From the NCBI RefSeq assembly GCF_055900595.2, contig NZ_CM148325.1: 64,000 bases of DNA. One strand, written 5' to 3'. The position numbers and the translations under genes are program-made. This document shows, one piece after another, positions 945 to 15,622 of the stretch. Under the pieces are notes generated by a model. The model saw only the letters and a program-made list of their open reading frames with translations. It made no database searches and had not been told where the DNA came from. The number at the start of each line of letters is the position of its first letter. Position 1 is the first letter of the stretch.

Positions 945-3416
945 TTAAGAATCAGCCTGACTCGGGATCAGTTTTTGCCAGATAACTGAAACGTATTTTG
1001 CCTGGTAACGGGCGTCATCAAGTGCATTATGCCGCTCACCTTCGAATGGAATAGCCGTTCTGGCATCGAAGTCTATGGCTTTCCCCAGCTCAACGATTGT
1101 GCGTACATCGCGATCGTTGTAGTAACGCCACGGGCAGGGGATCCCCTGCCGTTCGTATGAACGGCGCAAAATCGTGTTGTCGAAGTTGGCTCCATTTCCC
1201 CAGACCTGAACAAAAAATTCACCGGAGTTTTCGTCGATAAATTCCCGCAATTGTAACAGTGCATCATCTAACGGGATTTCATCGGTCATAATGGCAGACT
1301 GCGCTTCACGTGATTGCTTCAGCCACCATTTAATGACGTCACGATCAATGACTCCGCCAGCAGTATTCAGATCTATGGTCTTGCTAAATTCCGGTCCCAT
1401 ATCTCCGGTTTGTGGATCGAAAAATATTGCGCCTATTGAGATAATCGGGGCATCAGGATTTTTTCCCATGGTTTCAAGGTCGATCATTAGATGGTCACAC
1501 GTCCTGCTGGTGGATGTGATAACGTGATGACCGTTCACCGTAATTAAGGGATCTGCCGTCTCGCCAGTTTCACTATCGCTGGCGTGATCCTGAGCGCTGC
1601 CAGCATTCTCCTTGTGTGGATGTTCAGCGCCTTCCATTTTCTCCGAATCGTCTTCCTGAACTTCAACCTGGTTCTTGTCATCGAATGTTTCCTGGTATGT
1701 TGCGTCGCCCATCACCGCACCACATTCAGGGCAGTTGCCGCCGCCGGTCTGACCGTAGGCGGTGCAGATTTTTTCCGCTTCCTGTTGCGCTACTGGCTCA
1801 GGTTGTTTCGTTTCTGGCTCGTTTTGTAACGCATTTGGGCTGTTTTGTTCCGCTTTCTGGTCGTTCTGTTCCGTTTCTTGCTGGTTCTGGTTCACTGAAT
1901 CGCGGGTTTCAATCCCCTTCACCCATTTCGGATCATTCGGATCGCTAATCCCTGCAACAAATTCACCACGTGATACAGCAAGCAACTGATTGGCGTCAGG
2001 CTGGCTGATATTGGCTGCCTGCATAATTTTGTTTACTTCGTCAGCGGTAATTTTTACCGGCTCTGGTTGTGCGGTCGTGTCAGATGCACCAGTATTTTGT
2101 TGTGAACCTGAGTATGTACCGTTTTTGCGGGCGAAATATTCTTCTTTCGTGATTTCAGTAGCCCCGGCAGCCAGCGCCTTATCCAGACCAGAAAGTTTGT
2201 TTGCGCGACCGTATTTTTCGCCATCCTTGTCGGTAAAGAGGAAGTAGAACGGCCCCTCACGCTCTACAGATGGTTCGACTTCCACTTTGCATTCAGTTTT
2301 TTCGTTGCCCGGAATTGCCGTTTCCACTGCATCAGTTTCTGGTACTGGCGACGAGAGAGTATCAGTTGCGCTCTGATTTGTTCCTTCATCTTCAAACACG
2401 CCCTTTGTAGTCAGGTATTTAGTAATGTATTTGTTCAGTGCCACAGGGTCTTTGTGAATGTCGATCGGACGTTCACGGACAAGGCCAAAAATAGTCTGGC
2501 GGTCGTAGCGAAGGGCATCAGGCTGTTTGCGCATTGATGCCGAGATACGCTTCCAGTCTTCGCGGTCGTTGTCGATAACTTCATTTTTTGCCCAGCGATG
2601 GATGCTGCCGTCAATGTTTCCGGCATCCACATCACCAGGCCAGAGAGCGTAGGCCAGTTCGTCATCCAGTGTTTTCCATGTCTGCTTGTATTCGCGATGA
2701 GTGGCAGCAATGACCGGGTTGATTTTTCCTGTTGAATTTTCAGTGTGCTGTTGATTGGCTCTGGCGCGGGCGAGATCAACAACAGACGTGTATTTTCCGG
2801 TTTCCTTGCGTTCATTTTCGCGACGTTTTTTCCAGATGCGCATCTCTGCCTGAATTTCGGGCCATTTAGCTCCAGGATTACATTTATGTTTAACCCACCC
2901 GATGGCATGCAGCTTAAGCTCCGGATACATGGCGTTAACTTCTGGCATTTTCATCAACGCTTCAACGATATGTCCGTCGAATGTTGCCATGTCTTCCTGC
3001 AACAATTCCTGCGCGCTAATCACCATATCAACGGTGATGTTTTCACATGTGTCGAACTTAACCATGACAGCGTTCTGTACTTCAGGGGCCAGCTTGTCAA
3101 AAGTGACGTTCATCGGATCTGATTCAGTCTCAACCGGGACAAAGGAAGCAGACTCCTCATCCCAGCGGTTTTCCTGCATATATTCAGCATCCCAGGAATC
3201 GAGGGCAGGGCGGGGTATACCGGGTTTATCCTCGCAAACAAGAAATTTATAAGCGCAGTCCTGAGCAACCGGATAATGTTCCAGGAATTGCCAGTGAAAT
3301 TTTGCGCGGGCGCGACGTTCATCACCGGCTTCAATGGCAGTGGCTACAGCGATTGCACCTTCTTCCTTTATTGCCTGTTCGTCCGGAATGGCGGCGCAAA
3401 TAAAGACTTTACTCAT
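945..3416 (-). CDS. Exonuclease-like early protein (823 aa) with C-terminal DnaQ/DEDDh-type 3'-5' exonuclease domain
   Basis: C-terminal motifs HLMIDLETMG, GANFDNTIL and HNALDDARYQAKY; central CPECG zinc-ribbon-like motif; Q/E-rich linker; position equivalent to lambda exo region. Confidence 0.75.
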   Translation of the reverse strand: MSKVFICAAIPDEQAIKEEGAIAVATAIEAGDERRARAKFHWQFLEHYPVAQDCAYKFLVCEDKPGIPRPALDSWDAEYMQENRWDEESASFVPVETESDPMNVTFDKLAPEVQNAVMVKFDTCENITVDMVISAQELLQEDMATFDGHIVEALMKMPEVNAMYPELKLHAIGWVKHKCNPGAKWPEIQAEMRIWKKRRENERKETGKYTSVVDLARARANQQHTENSTGKINPVIAATHREYKQTWKTLDDELAYALWPGDVDAGNIDGSIHRWAKNEVIDNDREDWKRISASMRKQPDALRYDRQTIFGLVRERPIDIHKDPVALNKYITKYLTTKGVFEDEGTNQSATDTLSSPVPETDAVETAIPGNEKTECKVEVEPSVEREGPFYFLFTDKDGEKYGRANKLSGLDKALAAGATEITKEEYFARKNGTYSGSQQNTGASDTTAQPEPVKITADEVNKIMQAANISQPDANQLLAVSRGEFVAGISDPNDPKWVKGIETRDSVNQNQQETEQNDQKAEQNSPNALQNEPETKQPEPVAQQEAEKICTAYGQTGGGNCPECGAVMGDATYQETFDDKNQVEVQEDDSEKMEGAEHPHKENAGSAQDHASDSETGETADPLITVNGHHVITSTSRTCDHLMIDLETMGKNPDAPIISIGAIFFDPQTGDMGPEFSKTIDLNTAGGVIDRDVIKWWLKQSREAQSAIMTDEIPLDDALLQLREFIDENSGEFFVQVWGNGANFDNTILRRSYERQGIPCPWRYYNDRDVRTIVELGKAIDFDARTAIPFEGERHNALDDARYQAKYVSVIWQKLIPSQADS

Positions 3417-10202: not shown

Positions 10203-10817
10203 ATGCAGAATTTATCTCAACAGTTGTTAGAAGCATATGACAAGGAGTGCCGCAAAGAGCTTTCGATCGCGTTAGCACAGGCTTATCTTCATTCGCATAT
10301 GAAGGCAAAAGAGTTTGGTTCTTTTTGGGCTCAAGCACAGTCATATTTGCGCTGGTTTTATGCCGATGCATTGCTTGAGAATGCGGCTAAGCGTGTGGGG
10401 CTGGATTTTGAAGTCGGTAGCAATGCTGCTAAAAATTGTAAACACATTGCGATTCACTCGAACAACTGGAAAATGACGGCACATCATTTATCGGGTAATG
10501 CGCCACTTCCTAAGCAGGCATTGTATAGAGCTGTTTACGCTAATCAAAATTATGAATTGAATTTTGGGGATGAAAATGCCGACTCCCTGGATGGGAGAGC
10601 GTCTGGTGGACATGTTTATATGTTACATGATGGCAGTAATCAGCACTTGTCCAAACTGAATTTAACTGTTCCTTCTTCGGATAATTACGGGATTCTTTAT
10701 ACTGAGTCTTTACCAATTATGACGATGGTAGAAGTTGAAGCAGAAAATGTGGATTCTGAGATTGAAGATAAAATCAAGATTCTTACCGAACAAATAATTA
10801 AATCACAGCAATCATGA
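10203..10817 (+). CDS. Hypothetical protein (204 aa), first gene of a two-gene accessory cassette
   Basis: ORF with AAGGA RBS; no recognisable domain; stop overlaps the start of the next gene (ATGA). Confidence 0.6.
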   Translation: MQNLSQQLLEAYDKECRKELSIALAQAYLHSHMKAKEFGSFWAQAQSYLRWFYADALLENAAKRVGLDFEVGSNAAKNCKHIAIHSNNWKMTAHHLSGNAPLPKQALYRAVYANQNYELNFGDENADSLDGRASGGHVYMLHDGSNQHLSKLNLTVPSSDNYGILYTESLPIMTMVEVEAENVDSEIEDKIKILTEQIIKSQQS

Positions 10818-11959
10818 GCATGAATATCGCACAAACACCATTTACTGATAAATCGTTTAATCCTCGTCGCCTTGAGGAGGCAAGAGAGGCAAAAGGGTTG
10901 ACGATGGCTGAACTTGCCAGAGTGCTCAATATTTCAAGACAAGCTATTTCGTCATTTGAGAAGGGGTTGAAGTCTCCCTCTGCTGATACACTTTCTGCAA
11001 TAGCCAAGGTGTTAGGATTTCCAGAACGATTTTTCTTAGCCTCCAGTGCTTCTCCATCTCTGGAGGGGGCGATTCATTTTAGAAGTCGTTCAACTGCGAC
11101 CAAAAAGGCTCGAGTTACAGGGAAAACACGTGGGCGTTGGGCGGCATTAATATTGGATGAATGTCTAAAATATGCTCAATTACCAGATGTGGTTCTGCCT
11201 GAATTCGATATTATTGATTTTGAGGTTCTGTCTCTATCTGATATTGAGGATATGTCCACCCAATTAAGGCGTTTTTGGGGGTTAGGTGATGGTCCAATAC
11301 TCAATTTAACTAGACTTGTTGAAAATAAAGGAATCGTGGTTTCTCATTTACCTTCTGGTGAGAAAGTTGATGCCTTTTCGTTCTGGCATAATGGGCGGCC
11401 TTTAATTATGTTAGATAGCTCGAAGACGGCTGTTCGCATGCGATTTAGTCTTGCTCATGAACTTGGCCATTTAATTATGCATAGGGCAGTGGAGGATGAC
11501 TACCTGAATGATAAAGAATTATTCGACCTGGTGGAGTTGCAGGCCGATTATTTTGCCTCCAGCTTTTTAATGCCAGCCACCACTTTCGGGCGTGAATTTT
11601 ATAGTCCAAATTTATCAGCGTTAGAACGATTAAAACTACGTTGGATTACATCTATCGGTAGTATTGCCATGAGGAGTCATAGCCTTAAGTTAATCAGCGA
11701 TAATCAGAAAAGCTATATATTTAAGCAATTAGCGCCATTCCATCGTAGGGAGCCGTTAGATGATGCAATCCCAAAAGAAGAGCCTGAGTTACTTAATAAG
11801 TTACTTTTACTTCTTGATAAGCATTCAATCATAAAGGTAACTGAGTTAACTGATATCTTTGCTCTTCCCTTAAATGAGTTATCTGCAATTACACGATTTA
11901 AAGAATCAGATATGATTCATTCTGACAATGTTATTTCATTTACCATAAAACAAAAATAA
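10814..11959 (+). CDS. HTH_XRE - ImmA/IrrE (COG2856, M78-like) zinc metallopeptidase fusion protein
   Basis: N-terminal XRE HTH (LTMAELARVLNISRQAISSFEKG); HEXXH motif HELGHLIMH at 11456-11470 followed by ELQADYFASSFLMP, typical of ImmA/IrrE. Confidence 0.8.
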   Translation: MSMNIAQTPFTDKSFNPRRLEEAREAKGLTMAELARVLNISRQAISSFEKGLKSPSADTLSAIAKVLGFPERFFLASSASPSLEGAIHFRSRSTATKKARVTGKTRGRWAALILDECLKYAQLPDVVLPEFDIIDFEVLSLSDIEDMSTQLRRFWGLGDGPILNLTRLVENKGIVVSHLPSGEKVDAFSFWHNGRPLIMLDSSKTAVRMRFSLAHELGHLIMHRAVEDDYLNDKELFDLVELQADYFASSFLMPATTFGREFYSPNLSALERLKLRWITSIGSIAMRSHSLKLISDNQKSYIFKQLAPFHRREPLDDAIPKEEPELLNKLLLLLDKHSIIKVTELTDIFALPLNELSAITRFKESDMIHSDNVISFTIKQK

Positions 11960-11971
11960 TTCTCATTCATA

Positions 11972-11994
11972 CCCGCCTCGGCGGGTTTTTGTTT
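11972..11994 (+). terminator. Rho-independent terminator after the cassette
   Basis: cccgcctcggcgggtttttgtttt. Confidence 0.7.
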
Positions 11995-12065
11995 TACGTA
12001 TTCTGGTTTACAATCCACAGGCCAGCCTGAACAACTGGCACCTGCTGCGCCAGCAGAGACAACCG

Positions 12066-12344
12066 ATGGCGCACGATACCAAATTACACAATTCTGATGA
12101 TTCTGCCGTCTTTGCCAGCAGGCACGGGCGGCGCTCTCACGCATTTAAATCTGATTGGTACCAGCATCCCCCATGCACTGAAGAACAGGCCGAATGGCTG
12201 ATTCATTCTTACCGCAGGCGCGGGTTCGAGGTTAAGAAAGCTCTCAGTCTCGACTATCGGCACTGGATAATCTCTGTCAGGCTGCCTTATTCCGAACGCC
12301 CACCACGTGCGTCCCGCACTTTCCAGCAACGGATCTGGAGGTAA
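12066..12344 (+). CDS. Hypothetical protein (92 aa), possibly a frame-separated N-terminal piece of the DUF968 gene
   Basis: Protein-like ORF whose 3' end overlaps the DUF968 ORF in another frame. Confidence 0.35.
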   Translation: MAHDTKLHNSDDSAVFASRHGRRSHAFKSDWYQHPPCTEEQAEWLIHSYRRRGFEVKKALSLDYRHWIISVRLPYSERPPRASRTFQQRIWR

Positions 12345-13395
12345 CGTGCGGGTATTACTTAGACCTGTTCTGGTGCCAGAGCTTGGGCTGGTGGTCCTTA
12401 AACTAGGCCGTGAATCCATGCCGGTATTCCACAATACCCGGGTACTGGTGGAGCCGGAACCGAAAAGCATGCGTAATCTGCCGTCCGGGGTCGTTCCTGC
12501 CGTTCGCCAGCCGCTGGTGGAAGACAAAACATTGCTGCCGTTTTTCAGTAACGCACGGGTGATTCGTGCTGCTGGTGGTGCTGGTGCATTGTCTGACTGG
12601 CTGTTGCGCCATATTAAATCCTGCCAGTGGCCGCACGGCGATTATCATCACAGCGAAACCGTCATTCACCGTTATGGTACCGGCGCAATGGTGTTGTGCT
12701 GGCACTGCGACAACCAACTGCGTGACCAGACATCCGAATCACTCGAGCAACTTGCTCATCAAAACCTGTCAGCATGGATGATTGACGTCATCGGTCACGC
12801 AATAAGCGGTACGCAGGAGCGTGAATTATCTCTGGCTGAATTATCCTGGTGGGCGCTCCGCAATCAGGTGGCGGACGCGCTACCGGAAGCGGTATTACGT
12901 CGTTCGCTGGGATTACCAGCGGAAAAAATCTGCTCGGTGTACCGCGAGAGCGACATCGTACCGGGAGAGCAGACCGCCACCAGCATATTGAAACAACGCA
13001 CAAAAAATCTTGCACCGTTGCCTTACGCCCACCAGCAACAAAAACCACCACAGGAAAAGACGGTGGTAAGCATCACCGTTGATCCAGAGTCTCCGGAATC
13101 TTTCATGAAGCTGCCTAAACGTCACCGTTGGGTTAAGGAGAAATACACACGCTGGGTTAAGACACAGCCGTGTGCTTGCTGCGGGATGCCAGCCGACGAT
13201 CCGCATCATCTGATTGGTCACGGGCAGGGCGGAATGGGAACCAAAGCACATGATCTCTTTGTGTTGCCTTTGTGCAGAAAGCATCACGACGAGTTGCATA
13301 CGGATACCGTGGTATTTGAAGAGAAGTATGGCTCCCAACTGGAGCTGATTTTTCGATTTATCGATCGCGCGCTGGCAATTGGTGTGCTGGCCTAA
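12307..13395 (+). CDS. DUF968-family protein with C-terminal HNH-like motif (YdfU-like); start uncertain
   Basis: C-terminal [17 protein letters not shown]...HHDELH zinc-finger/HNH-like motif; located just upstream of Q. Confidence 0.65.
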
Positions 13396-13412
13396 TTTTG
13401 TGGAGTAAGTTG

Positions 13413-13790
13413 ATGCGTGATATTCAGATGGTTCTTGAGCGTTGGGGGGCATGGGCGGCTAATAATCATGAAGATGTGACCTGGTCGTCCATTGCCGCTG
13501 GTTTTAAGGGATTAATTCCTTCAAAAGTAAGATCTCGTCCGCAATGCTGTGACGATGACGCGATGATCATTTGTGAATGTATGGCTCGCCTGAGAAAAAA
13601 CAACAGCGATTTACATGGTTTATTGGTGGACTATTATGTCGGCGGCATGACTTTTATGGCGCTTGCACGTAAGCATGGGCGATCTGATTGTTGGGTTGGC
13701 AGGATGCTCCAGAAAGCTGAGGGCGTAGTGGAGGGCATGCTGATGGTATTGGATCTCCGATTGGAGATGGATGCTGATTGTTCGAAATAA
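13413..13790 (+). CDS. Late antiterminator Q (phage 82/21 QuuD type)
   Basis: [31 protein letters not shown]...[16 protein letters not shown] matches the QuuD-like Q family. Confidence 0.85.
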
Positions 13791-13889
13791 TTAAAGGAAA
13801 AGTTGCTGTCTGATTGTCATTAGTCTAACATTTTAAATGTTGGAATCGCAACGTAGTTATTATCATATAACAGCTTGTTTCCTGATTTA

Positions 13890-13918
13890 GCCAGCCTCCC
13901 CAAAGGCTGGTTTTTTTC
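13890..13918 (+). terminator. Candidate tR' terminator downstream of Q
   Basis: agccagcctccccaaaggctggttttttt. Confidence 0.6.
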
Positions 13919-13945
13919 TAATAAGTATCATTTCGGGTAGGGATT

Positions 13946-14476
13946 TTATTGTTTAACCCATAATAATTCATTGACATTGAATCCCAACTTTTGAGCGGTT
14001 CGCACATAGTCTGCTTTTACTTTATCTGGAATAGTTGGGGTCCTTGCCAGAATCCATAGGTATTCTCTGTTCGAACCACTAACAAGAGCATACTTATACT
14101 CATCATCCAGTTTGATTACATTATAGCCACCATAGAAGGGGCCAAAAAACGAAACCTTCAACGCTGCAGTTTTAGTATCTCCAGTAAAGTATGCTTTACC
14201 TTCGCTCTCGCTCCATTTATTTTTCGTTGGATCGTATCCACGGTTAAGTACACGAATCCCTCCGTCGTTCCGTTTTCCATAAGTAGCGCTGACCTGCTCC
14301 AGACCACGTTCGAACCGGTTCTCGAGGCGAGCTATTTCATACCATTTTCCGAGGTAGCGGTTGGCGTCAAAATTTGTAATCGGCTGCACACCTTTAGGTG
14401 GTGTCGGGGCCTTACATGCTATAAGAGTGAAAGAGAGTGCAATGCCAGTCAACACAGGCCATAACTTCATAATCAA
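13946..14476 (-). CDS. blc: Bacterial lipocalin Blc-like outer-membrane lipoprotein (moron)
   Basis: Lipobox LIAC; KWYEIARLENRFERGLEQV and FFGPFYGGYNVI motifs match Blc. Confidence 0.85.
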   Translation of the reverse strand: MIMKLWPVLTGIALSFTLIACKAPTPPKGVQPITNFDANRYLGKWYEIARLENRFERGLEQVSATYGKRNDGGIRVLNRGYDPTKNKWSESEGKAYFTGDTKTAALKVSFFGPFYGGYNVIKLDDEYKYALVSGSNREYLWILARTPTIPDKVKADYVRTAQKLGFNVNELLWVKQ

Positions 14477-14662
14477 TCCTGTACTTTTGATAGTTGAGAG
14501 TAAGTATGAAAGATAGATGATTACGACCGATCACTTAAAGAACTTTCATACTATATTAGGAATAGTCCATAACAGAAAAATTGTCAGTGATGACGTCAGA
14601 AAGGCAATTTATTCCGTGCACTACACAGTTTATGTGTTAATGAATTAGTCAAGGGGGAGGAT

Positions 14663-15622
14663 ATGATAAAAAAACCTGTGATTGGAATCAGCGGTTGTTT
14701 GGCCGGTTCTGCTGTTCGTTTTGATGGTGGTCACAAAAGAGCTGACTTTTTAATGGACAAATTAGTGGAATGGGTAACATTCAGACCAGTATGTCCGGAA
14801 ATGGCTATAGGGCTGCCAGTTCCGCGTCCTGCTCTACGTCTTGTGCGCTCGAAGCAAGGAAATATACGGATGTGTTTCAGCCACGACCAGAATGAGGATG
14901 TGACAGAGAGAATGACAGAGTTTAGTCGTTCTTATATGCACAAATTAAAGGATGTATCGGGGTTTGTGGTTTGTGCTAAATCTCCCAGCTGTGGCATGGA
15001 GCGCGTGCGTGTCTATGATGAAAATGGTAATCGAGGTCGTAAAGATGGAGTGGGACTATTTACGAGCACTTTGATGGAAAAGTTTTCCTGGCTACCGGTT
15101 GAAGAGGATGGGCGATTACATGATCCAGTGCTTCGTGAGAATTTTGTTGAAAGAGTTTTTGCTTTGCATGAGCTCAATCACCTTTACAAGGAGAAATTAT
15201 CAAGAAGAGAGTTATTAGCTTTTCATAGTCGTTATAAGCTTCAGTTGTTGGCGCATAGTCAGGCAGGCTATAAAGATATGGGACCATTTGTGGCTGCAAT
15301 ACACGAGTGGGCGGACCTTGAATCATACTTTGAGGTGTATCGTGATAAGCTGATGGCGATTCTCAGAAAACCTGCATCACGTAAAAATCACACGAATGTG
15401 CTGATGCATATACAGGGGTATTTTAGTAATTACTTAAGTACACGCCAGCGTAAAGAGTTGACCGAGGTTATACTTAACTATCGCTTTGGCACATTGCCTC
15501 TTCTTGCGCCGTTGACTCTGCTGAAGCATTATCTGGGTGAGTATCCTAATGATTACTTGCTTACACAGAATTACTTCGATCCCTATCCGGAAGAACTGGC
15601 TCTAAGACTGATGGTGAATTAA
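14663..15622 (+). CDS. DUF523 (TudS-like) / DUF1722 two-domain protein (YbgA family)
   Basis: N-terminal GISGCLAG with further conserved Cys; C-terminal DUF1722-like half. Confidence 0.65.
   Translation: MIKKPVIGISGCLAGSAVRFDGGHKRADFLMDKLVEWVTFRPVCPEMAIGLPVPRPALRLVRSKQGNIRMCFSHDQNEDVTERMTEFSRSYMHKLKDVSGFVVCAKSPSCGMERVRVYDENGNRGRKDGVGLFTSTLMEKFSWLPVEEDGRLHDPVLRENFVERVFALHELNHLYKEKLSRRELLAFHSRYKLQLLAHSQAGYKDMGPFVAAIHEWADLESYFEVYRDKLMAILRKPASRKNHTNVLMHIQGYFSNYLSTRQRKELTEVILNYRFGTLPLLAPLTLLKHYLGEYPNDYLLTQNYFDPYPEELALRLMVN

Follow-up and report, generated by a model that had tools for sequence, protein, structure and literature searches.

The apparent overlap upstream of a YdfU-type HNH-domain gene in a Qin-like prophage reflects two adjacent nin-region genes

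Introduction

When a short open reading frame (ORF) overlaps the 5′ end of a longer one in a different frame, it may be the detached beginning of a broken gene, the first part of a product made by programmed frameshifting, or a gene in its own right. This question is raised by positions 12066–13395 (+) of a 64,000-nt stretch of contig NZ_CM148325.1 (assembly GCF_055900595.2), referred to here as the window. An earlier note on this DNA recorded a 92-aa ORF at 12066–12344 (+) and an overlapping DUF968 ORF ending at 13395 (+), and offered all three explanations; the ORF list and Pfam confirm that both ORFs are present. We are highly confident that the locus comprises two separate nin-region genes, probably transcribed together and translationally coupled, the downstream one encoding a YdfU orthologue with an HNH domain and the upstream one an independent small protein.

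Prophage context and distribution

The locus is a nin region, the stretch flanked by the replication genes and the antiterminator gene Q, and belongs to a Qin-like lambdoid prophage. Its genes run in the order cro/cI-like, YdaT, DUF977, hokD, a cassette of two genes, a terminator, the small gene, DUF968 and Q, beyond which lie lipocalin and YbgA cargo and then holin and lysozyme. The Q gene, placed at 13413–13790 (+) by PGAP coordinates and matching Pfam Phage_antitermQ with an E-value of 3e-50, fixes the pair in the nin region. Among the copies compared, the constant block is small gene–DUF968–(RusA)–Q, and the slot upstream of the small gene is occupied elsewhere by rem, by hokD alone or by ParDE.

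Several features of the neighborhood vary. Q adjoins DUF968 in the window, with only positions 13396–13412 between them; a RusA resolvase gene intervenes in nine of the 11 other Escherichia loci, the exceptions being K-12 Qin and the locus L010. RusA appears to have been lost or replaced in the window prophage, and its co-occurrence with DUF968 elsewhere implies that DUF968 is no substitute for it. Late genes would be expected directly downstream of Q; positions 13946–15622 instead hold a Blc-like lipocalin gene (minus strand) and a YbgA-family gene, and in the annotation of the identical Ecol_316 locus holin and lysozyme come after these. The arrangement resembles moron cargo lodged between Q and the lysis genes.

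The junction region was found in 4483 of 5426 complete E. coli genomes (about 83%), with two genes annotated in every sampled row of that search. One copy appears to have decayed: in Escherichia albertii CP117575.1 (L012, 2781–3838) the DUF968 frame has been shortened to 214 aa and is not annotated as a gene, the upstream small gene and the downstream RusA and Q being intact.

Gene boundaries at the junction

The longest ORF in the DUF968 frame extends from a GTG at 12307 to 13395 (+; 362 aa) and stands in the +1 frame relative to the small ORF. The two maximal ORFs therefore share 38 nt, GTG 12307 lying inside the 92-aa ORF, and to this extent the overlap described earlier is real. The small gene (12066–12344, +) ends with TAA at 12342–12344, and a second GTG, at 12346, is found one base past this stop, in the order ATC TGG AGG TAA c GTG CGG GTA. 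A Shine–Dalgarno sequence, GGAGG, can be read at 12337–12341 (+); it is built from the final sense codons of the small gene, TGG AGG, and the gap between it and GTG 12346 is short, at only 4 nt.

To evaluate which GTG is used, the junction was compared across 13 E. coli/Escherichia copies, which comprise 11 further loci in addition to the window and K-12. In 13/13 copies the 13-mer TGGAGGTAAcGTG is the same base for base, and GGAGG is likewise unchanged in all of them. The upstream in-frame GTG (−39, 12307) is present only in the window and K-12, and the sole upstream in-frame start in the locus L011 is a TTG at −96; the other ten copies contain no in-frame start codon between the equivalent of GTG 12346 and the nearest upstream stop. 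Variable sites within 12307–12345 are distributed 1/1/4 over the three codon positions of the small-gene frame and 1/4/1 over those of the DUF968 frame, so that the substitutions in the "overlap" are silent in the former and non-silent in the latter. From this codon-position pattern, the segment evolves as the C-terminus of the small protein rather than as an N-terminal extension of YdfU.

Annotation and protein alignment agree with this placement. At the 99.9%-identical locus of E. coli Ecol_316, PGAP calls two genes whose limits are exactly these, one as a "hypothetical protein" and the other as a "DUF968 domain-containing protein", and the product from GTG 12346 is 349 aa, the length of K-12 YdfU. 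The DUF968 N-termini of E. coli, Klebsiella (50% identity), SfV (60%) and Vibrio phage Pel (34%) align at M/V-R-V/A-L-L...LG.V. The alignment with DUF968 homologues, YdfU included, that the earlier note had suggested thus yields an intact protein of 349 aa with a common N-terminus from GTG 12346. Together, the conservation pattern and the annotation place the true start of the DUF968 gene (12346–13395, +) at GTG 12346, with no overlap between the genes; the apparent overlap is a longest-ORF artefact, produced here by a chance in-frame GTG, itself unconserved, 39 nt before the true start.

With these boundaries, ribosomes would finish the small gene at TAA 12342–12344 and would start, or restart, one base further on at GTG 12346 by means of the GGAGG within its last codons. 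Both genes would be carried on one transcript and be translationally coupled; the proposed coupling is supported by the finding that the last codons of the small gene form the Shine–Dalgarno sequence of the next.

Frameshift readings

A single ancestral gene broken by a frameshift mutation or sequencing error, with the 92-aa ORF as the detached DUF968 N-terminus, would leave two adjacent ORFs on the same strand in different frames with a mechanical 38-nt overlap, as observed. The same two-gene junction, however, occurs in thousands of complete genomes, and this ubiquity excludes a mutation or sequencing error. It is also identical in the 13 copies although their small proteins are only 67–85% identical to that of the window. 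Furthermore, full-length DUF968 relatives in other genera lack such an N-terminal piece, and the small protein is a free-standing family found beside unrelated genes.

One database protein does join the two parts and could be taken to favor a single gene. P0185 (438 aa) is a head-to-tail fusion of both proteins and the sole fusion seen; the absence of the segment comprising IWR, the stop and the spacer identifies it as a one-off in-frame deletion or an artefact. This NCBI entry, a singleton cluster, is K-12-like and consists of the small protein minus its last three residues, IWR, joined to YdfU. At the joint it has Met instead of Val, which implies either the loss of 13 nt together with a base change or an artefact of assembly or annotation. 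A phmmer search of 1.84 billion representative proteins for a fusion with DUF968 returned none. With the 92-aa query, the same search returned 65 clusters, nearly all of 50–110 aa; the two long matches of more than 300 aa (P0168 and P0180) are internally repetitive chance hits. Long DUF968 database entries (375–449 aa) were likewise considered as a possible conserved form and dismissed, since none is conserved: those of 375 aa are over-extended ORF calls in an alternative frame, like the maximal DUF968 ORF considered here, and the remainder are internal duplications, C-terminal read-throughs into neighboring genes and the one deletion fusion (P0185). The probability that the locus is a single broken gene is, in our estimation, practically nil.

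Programmed +1 ribosomal frameshifting close to where the small gene ends would instead add a small-protein–YdfU fusion to the two separate products. The DUF968 frame is indeed open for 75 nt upstream of GTG 12346, and the last sense codon of the small gene is the rare AGG, with a stop directly after it and the Shine–Dalgarno-like GGAGG before. A rare codon, a stop and such a GGAGG loosely recall the +1 sites of prfB and Ty1. The sequence nevertheless contains no known +1 slippery motif (CUU UGA C or CUU AGG C), and neither tRNA-Trp nor tRNA-Arg could re-pair in the +1 frame. In the would-be transframe region, substitutions fall on the second positions of DUF968-frame codons, and the upstream open stretch varies from 66 to 99 nt among copies. 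Moreover, the frame relation between the two genes is itself unconserved, being +1 or +2 depending on the lineage; a conserved frameshifting device would not tolerate the difference between +2 in Klebsiella and +1 here. Sites of the prfB and dnaX type are marked by a conserved slippery motif, by a constant frame relation between the ORFs and by a transframe segment preserved as protein; none of these is seen at this junction, and programmed frameshifting is extremely unlikely.

Every homologous locus examined carries two separately called genes with the same junction. Both frameshift proposals are rejected on this ground, as the homologues show two separate conserved genes joined in the same way, and the earlier note's third option, two genes, stands.

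The small gene

The small protein of the window is identical to WP_015912508.1, as annotated in Ecol_316. Its residues 27–92 match positions 1–66 of the 66-position profile of PHROG 1212 (E = 1.2e-35), a family of unknown function; no Pfam family was matched at E ≤ 0.01, NinF (PF05810) included. By tblastn, the gene was detected in 55 phage records, down to 32–40% identity, in phages of Salmonella, Klebsiella, Yersinia, Edwardsiella, Cronobacter and Erwinia. At 31–48% identity, the homologues come from Salmonella, Klebsiella, Yersinia, Edwardsiella and Cronobacter phages, and the ORF is intact every time. The C-terminal tail PRxSRTYQQRxW is kept across the whole family, even at this distance. 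Part of this tail conservation may reflect selection on the Shine–Dalgarno signal.

Pairwise comparison among six distinct Escherichia copies gave a dN/dS of 0.12–0.23 for the core (codons 27–92), with variable sites distributed 15/15/43 over the codon positions; the L010 copy differs by an in-frame 6-nt deletion. AlphaFold2 (AF2) modeling from a 38-sequence alignment predicted a beta-alpha-beta-beta core with pLDDT above 90 at residues 30–80 and a disordered N-terminus; the roughly 66 core residues also include a basic tail. Purifying selection on the core and homologues in other genera indicate that the 92-aa ORF is a genuine gene rather than a chance ORF.

Codons 1–26 (12066–12143) behave differently from the core, showing no codon periodicity (variable sites 11/12/13; dN/dS about 0.5–1+). 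Residues 1–26 are an Escherichia-specific extension, members outside Escherichia being 66 aa and lacking it. ATG 12066 is conserved among the copies, with GGAG upstream in most, and no alternative in-frame ATG, GTG or TTG is found downstream of it. The extension is thus near-neutral, yet its ATG, reading frame and in-frame indel are maintained. In L016 and L018, an antisense "hypothetical protein" (1441–1620, minus strand) is annotated over these codons and is probably spurious.

In K-12, the counterpart lies between rem and ydfU at about 1644306–1644584 of NC_000913.3 (L002, 1307–1585, minus strand). The ORF of MG1655 is intact and shares 78 of 92 residues with the window protein, including 63 of 66 in the core. 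The curated NC_000913.3 record carries no annotation for it; in PGAP-annotated K-12 derivatives, a "hypothetical protein" is found at the rem–ydfU position.

This missing annotation, together with the absence of codon periodicity in the first 26 codons, could suggest that the 92-aa ORF is no gene at all and that YdfU is the sole product, preceded by an untranslated, C-rich leader containing a Rho-dependent terminator. A very strong terminator of this kind has been reported upstream of ydfU in K-12 (PMC9160355) and would fall in or near the small ORF, and in the corresponding region of the window C exceeds G (GC skew −0.10 to −0.15). An untranslated leader would not, however, be expected to show the low dN/dS of the core, its excess of third-position changes or the in-frame indel of L010, nor to have intact protein-level homologues at 31–48% identity and a core that AF2 models confidently. 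We therefore consider it very unlikely that the ORF is not a gene. The two views are compatible, since even a gene with poor translation in a silent prophage may serve as a target of Rho.

Small gene and DUF968 as independent modules

The interpretation as two genes is further supported by loci in which each gene occurs without the other. The small gene lies directly upstream of NinG in Gifsy-2 and Edwardsiella phage GF-2, of YbcO/DUF1364 in mEp237 and phiES15, of NinX in one metagenomic contig and of a Dcm methylase gene in an Erwinia phage; in PY54 and an Enterobacter phage it precedes unrelated small ORFs. Conversely, DUF968 occurs without the small gene in SfV and Vibrio phage Pel, where unrelated genes precede it. 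The "frame-separated N-terminal piece" of the earlier note is accordingly an independent protein (PHROG 1212) that also precedes NinG, YbcO and NinX, and these neighborhoods indicate that it belongs to a family of its own rather than being a detached part of YdfU.

The pair recurs in Klebsiella phages with a TGATG overlap and with DUF968 in the +2 frame, versus +1 here. More generally, the frame of the following gene relative to the small gene is +1 in E. coli and GF-2 and +2 in Klebsiella, Gifsy-2 and mEp237. We compared the ending of the small gene in the window (12336–12344) with its equivalents, including those of L003, L004, L007, L021 and L022. In six of the seven junctions, the exception being that with NinX, the gene ends with TGG-(A/G)GG at the stop or one codon before it; outside the window, TGG-(A/G)GG and a stop precede NinG, YbcO or DUF968 in 5/6 loci. 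Because the terminal Trp-(Arg/Gly) is encoded by TGG-AGG or TGG-GGG, the final codons of the small gene would serve as the Shine–Dalgarno sequence of whichever gene follows.

The DUF968/YdfU protein

The DUF968 protein of the window shares 92% identity with K-12 YdfU (b1560) over all 349 aa. It matches Pfam DUF968 (PF06147) over model positions 1–171 of 171 with 254.6 bits (E = 6e-76; gathering threshold 27.8 bits) and PHROG 96, "HNH endonuclease", over its full length (E = 4e-172). Another 120 relatives, found in Vibrio, Photobacterium, Methylophaga and Yersinia, nearly all measure 323–356 aa, the few shorter ones looking truncated, and the proteins of Vibrio, Yersinia and Klebsiella (323–356 aa) carry no N-terminal piece resembling the small protein.

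The HNH-like Cys/His motif noted earlier at the C-terminus is borne out by profile, structural and motif comparisons. The C-terminal HNH (His-Me finger) domain occupies residues 250–349 (13093–13392, +) and carries the pattern CxxC...HH...CxxHH...H, which in 349-aa numbering corresponds to C276-x2-C279, H287/H288 and C310-x2-H313-H314-x3-H318. Both HNHc_6 and RecA_dep_nuc match the full-length ORF weakly in Pfam. When the C-terminal 100 aa are searched in isolation, HNHc_6 reaches 26.9 bits versus a cut-off of 26.6; RecA_dep_nuc (PF16786, cut-off 26.9 bits) is not reached, scoring 16.8 bits with the full-length protein and 21.6 with the isolated domain.

In an AF2 model based on 39 sequences (mean pLDDT 78.9), the N-terminal region is largely helical and includes a beta-hairpin (residues 105–118), residues 199–245 form a disordered linker, and a beta-beta-alpha unit lies at the C-terminus; the best structural matches of the model are HNH nucleases. 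This unit displays the elements of the His-Me finger fold: a beta-beta-alpha-metal arrangement in which the catalytic His ends the first strand and a metal-binding His/Asn sits in the helix, with flanking Zn-binding CxxC and CxxH. As modeled, the C-terminal domain is a Zn-stabilized HNH (His-Me finger) domain of the Ref/YbcO/Gp16 type.

No relation of the N-terminal domain to a Pfam family or to the HNH domain at the C-terminus could be detected, and no match to a solved fold was seen; searching PDB sequences with the DUF968 profile returned nothing at E ≤ 1. The N-terminal domain contains an invariant cluster, C93-Q94 ... C118-W119-H120-(C/H)121-D122 ... N140 (residues 93–140; 12622–12765), situated on a predicted beta-hairpin and helix, which looks like a metal site. 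The idea that this C-W-H-C-D-N series is a degenerate second HNH arising from internal duplication was discarded, the hhalign probability between the N- and C-terminal domains being 0.3%.

Our literature search found no biochemical study of any YdfU-type protein. By analogy with its HNH relatives, and from its nin-region position beside RusA and Q, the DUF968 protein most likely acts during lytic growth by nicking or cutting intermediates of DNA recombination or replication, the substrate being a guess because the N-terminal domain has no known counterpart. RecA may possibly assist it, as it does Ref and Gp16.

Leader and upstream elements

An intrinsic-terminator-like hairpin (ACCCGCC-TCGG-CGGGT) with a T-run was located by terminator scan at 11971–11995 (+). 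The same element follows hokD in other copies and is conserved in L010, L013 and L016–L018. Upstream of it, two overlapping genes at 10203–11959 (+) match the Rosmer anti-phage defense pair in PADLOC, a 204-aa protein corresponding to RmrT (E = 7.5e-10) and a 381-aa HTH and peptidase-M78 protein to RmrA (E = 5.5e-102). As this Rosmer-like cassette sits between hokD and the terminator that in other copies comes directly after hokD, it is inserted in a variable cargo slot.

Between the terminator-like element and the small gene, alignment of 11 copies revealed a conserved leader (12009–12057, +). It begins with a TACAAT box (12009–12014, +), followed 6–7 nt later by a 5-bp hairpin (GCCAG 12021–12025/CTGGC 12035–12039, +) whose loop contains an invariant CTGAAC, and then by a second hairpin (CTGCTG 12043–12048/CAGCAG 12052–12057, +) with a CGC loop, just before the ribosome-binding region. 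The stem of the first hairpin varies in a compensatory manner among the 11 copies, occurring as GCCAG/CTGGC, GTCAG/CTGAC with a G-U intermediate, CGGGG/TCCCG and CAGGG/CCCTG. An Rfam scan of 11700–13950, which includes the leader, gave only sub-threshold chance matches. As regards a promoter at the TACAAT box, no −35 region is conserved between copies and the promoter scan raised no flag. The layout recalls the lambda boxA–boxB (nut) arrangement, or a promoter with a 5′ stabilizing hairpin.

A more far-reaching interpretation can be built on these features. The small gene stands immediately upstream of a His-Me-finger nuclease gene (DUF968, YbcO or NinG) in six of 10 distinct contexts, and all six are among the junctions where its terminal codons form the next Shine–Dalgarno sequence; the PHROG-1212 protein might accordingly be a dedicated, coupled partner of such nucleases, for example an inhibitor, a chaperone or a DNA-targeting subunit; separately, the leader hairpin might be an RNA control element, nut-like or of another kind, that has gone undescribed in Qin-type prophages. 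We regard this extended proposal as unlikely.

Implications

The gene pair is ordinary and already annotated by PGAP; no frameshift and no sequencing error is involved. Nor are the small protein, YdfU's N-terminal domain and the structured leader peculiar to the window; they are generic to lambdoid nin regions. The "possible frameshift" flag raised by a longest-ORF overlap was a false alarm, and its significance lies mainly in annotation hygiene: ydfU-type genes truly start at the GTG that lies one base past the upstream stop, and the curated K-12 MG1655 record misses a conserved gene under purifying selection between rem and ydfU. Beyond annotation, the homology of the YdfU HNH module to the RecA-dependent Ref and Gp16 yields a hypothesis that can be tested for this very common prophage gene of E. 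coli, and the small gene and structured leader recur, uncharacterized, in lambdoid nin regions.

Comparison with known systems

The closest known counterpart is YdfU of the K-12 Qin prophage, which has the same GTG-start junction and the same place immediately upstream of the Q antiterminator gene. The unannotated 92-aa ORF of K-12 is joined to ydfU exactly as its counterpart is in the window. The two loci differ upstream of the pair, where the window has the Rosmer-like cassette and K-12 has rem. In lambda, ninF–ninG (rap) likewise has a small ORF immediately upstream of, and close against, a nuclease gene of the nin region, shortly before Q. The small protein differs from NinF itself in giving no match to the Pfam NinF family, and true NinF co-occurs with it in Erwinia and Enterobacter phages.

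Among characterized nucleases, P1 Ref (PDB 3PLW) is an HNH endonuclease that depends on RecA, and the score of the window protein is below the cut-off of the Ref family (21.6 vs 26.9 bits). The N-terminus of Ref is disordered and basic (PMC4330346), unlike that of YdfU, which is a folded domain of about 200 aa. DUF968 and DUF1364/YbcO have both been placed in group 7 of the His-Me finger nucleases (PMC5714182); YbcO of DLP12 (PDB 3G27) is nevertheless a single domain of 96 aa, unlike the two-part YdfU, and the profile search against PDB gave no match to it at the sequence level. Gp16 of S. aureus phage phiNM1 was reported in 2026 to be a RecA-dependent nickase (PMC12817073). It passes the Pfam cut-offs of both HNHc_6 and DUF968, the latter with 29.1 bits, and shares with the window protein 37% identity over 59 aa and the common motif CxxC...H...CRxHH...H. 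DUF968 proteins of Gram-positive bacteria are Orf/NinB–HNH fusions (PMC4118853). The window protein differs from this group, phiNM1 Gp16 included, in lacking the Orf/NinB N-terminal domain, and the Orf/NinB fold (PDB 1PC6) was not found in its own N-terminal domain. The likeness of YdfU to Ref and Gp16 is confined to the HNH core of roughly 60–80 aa.
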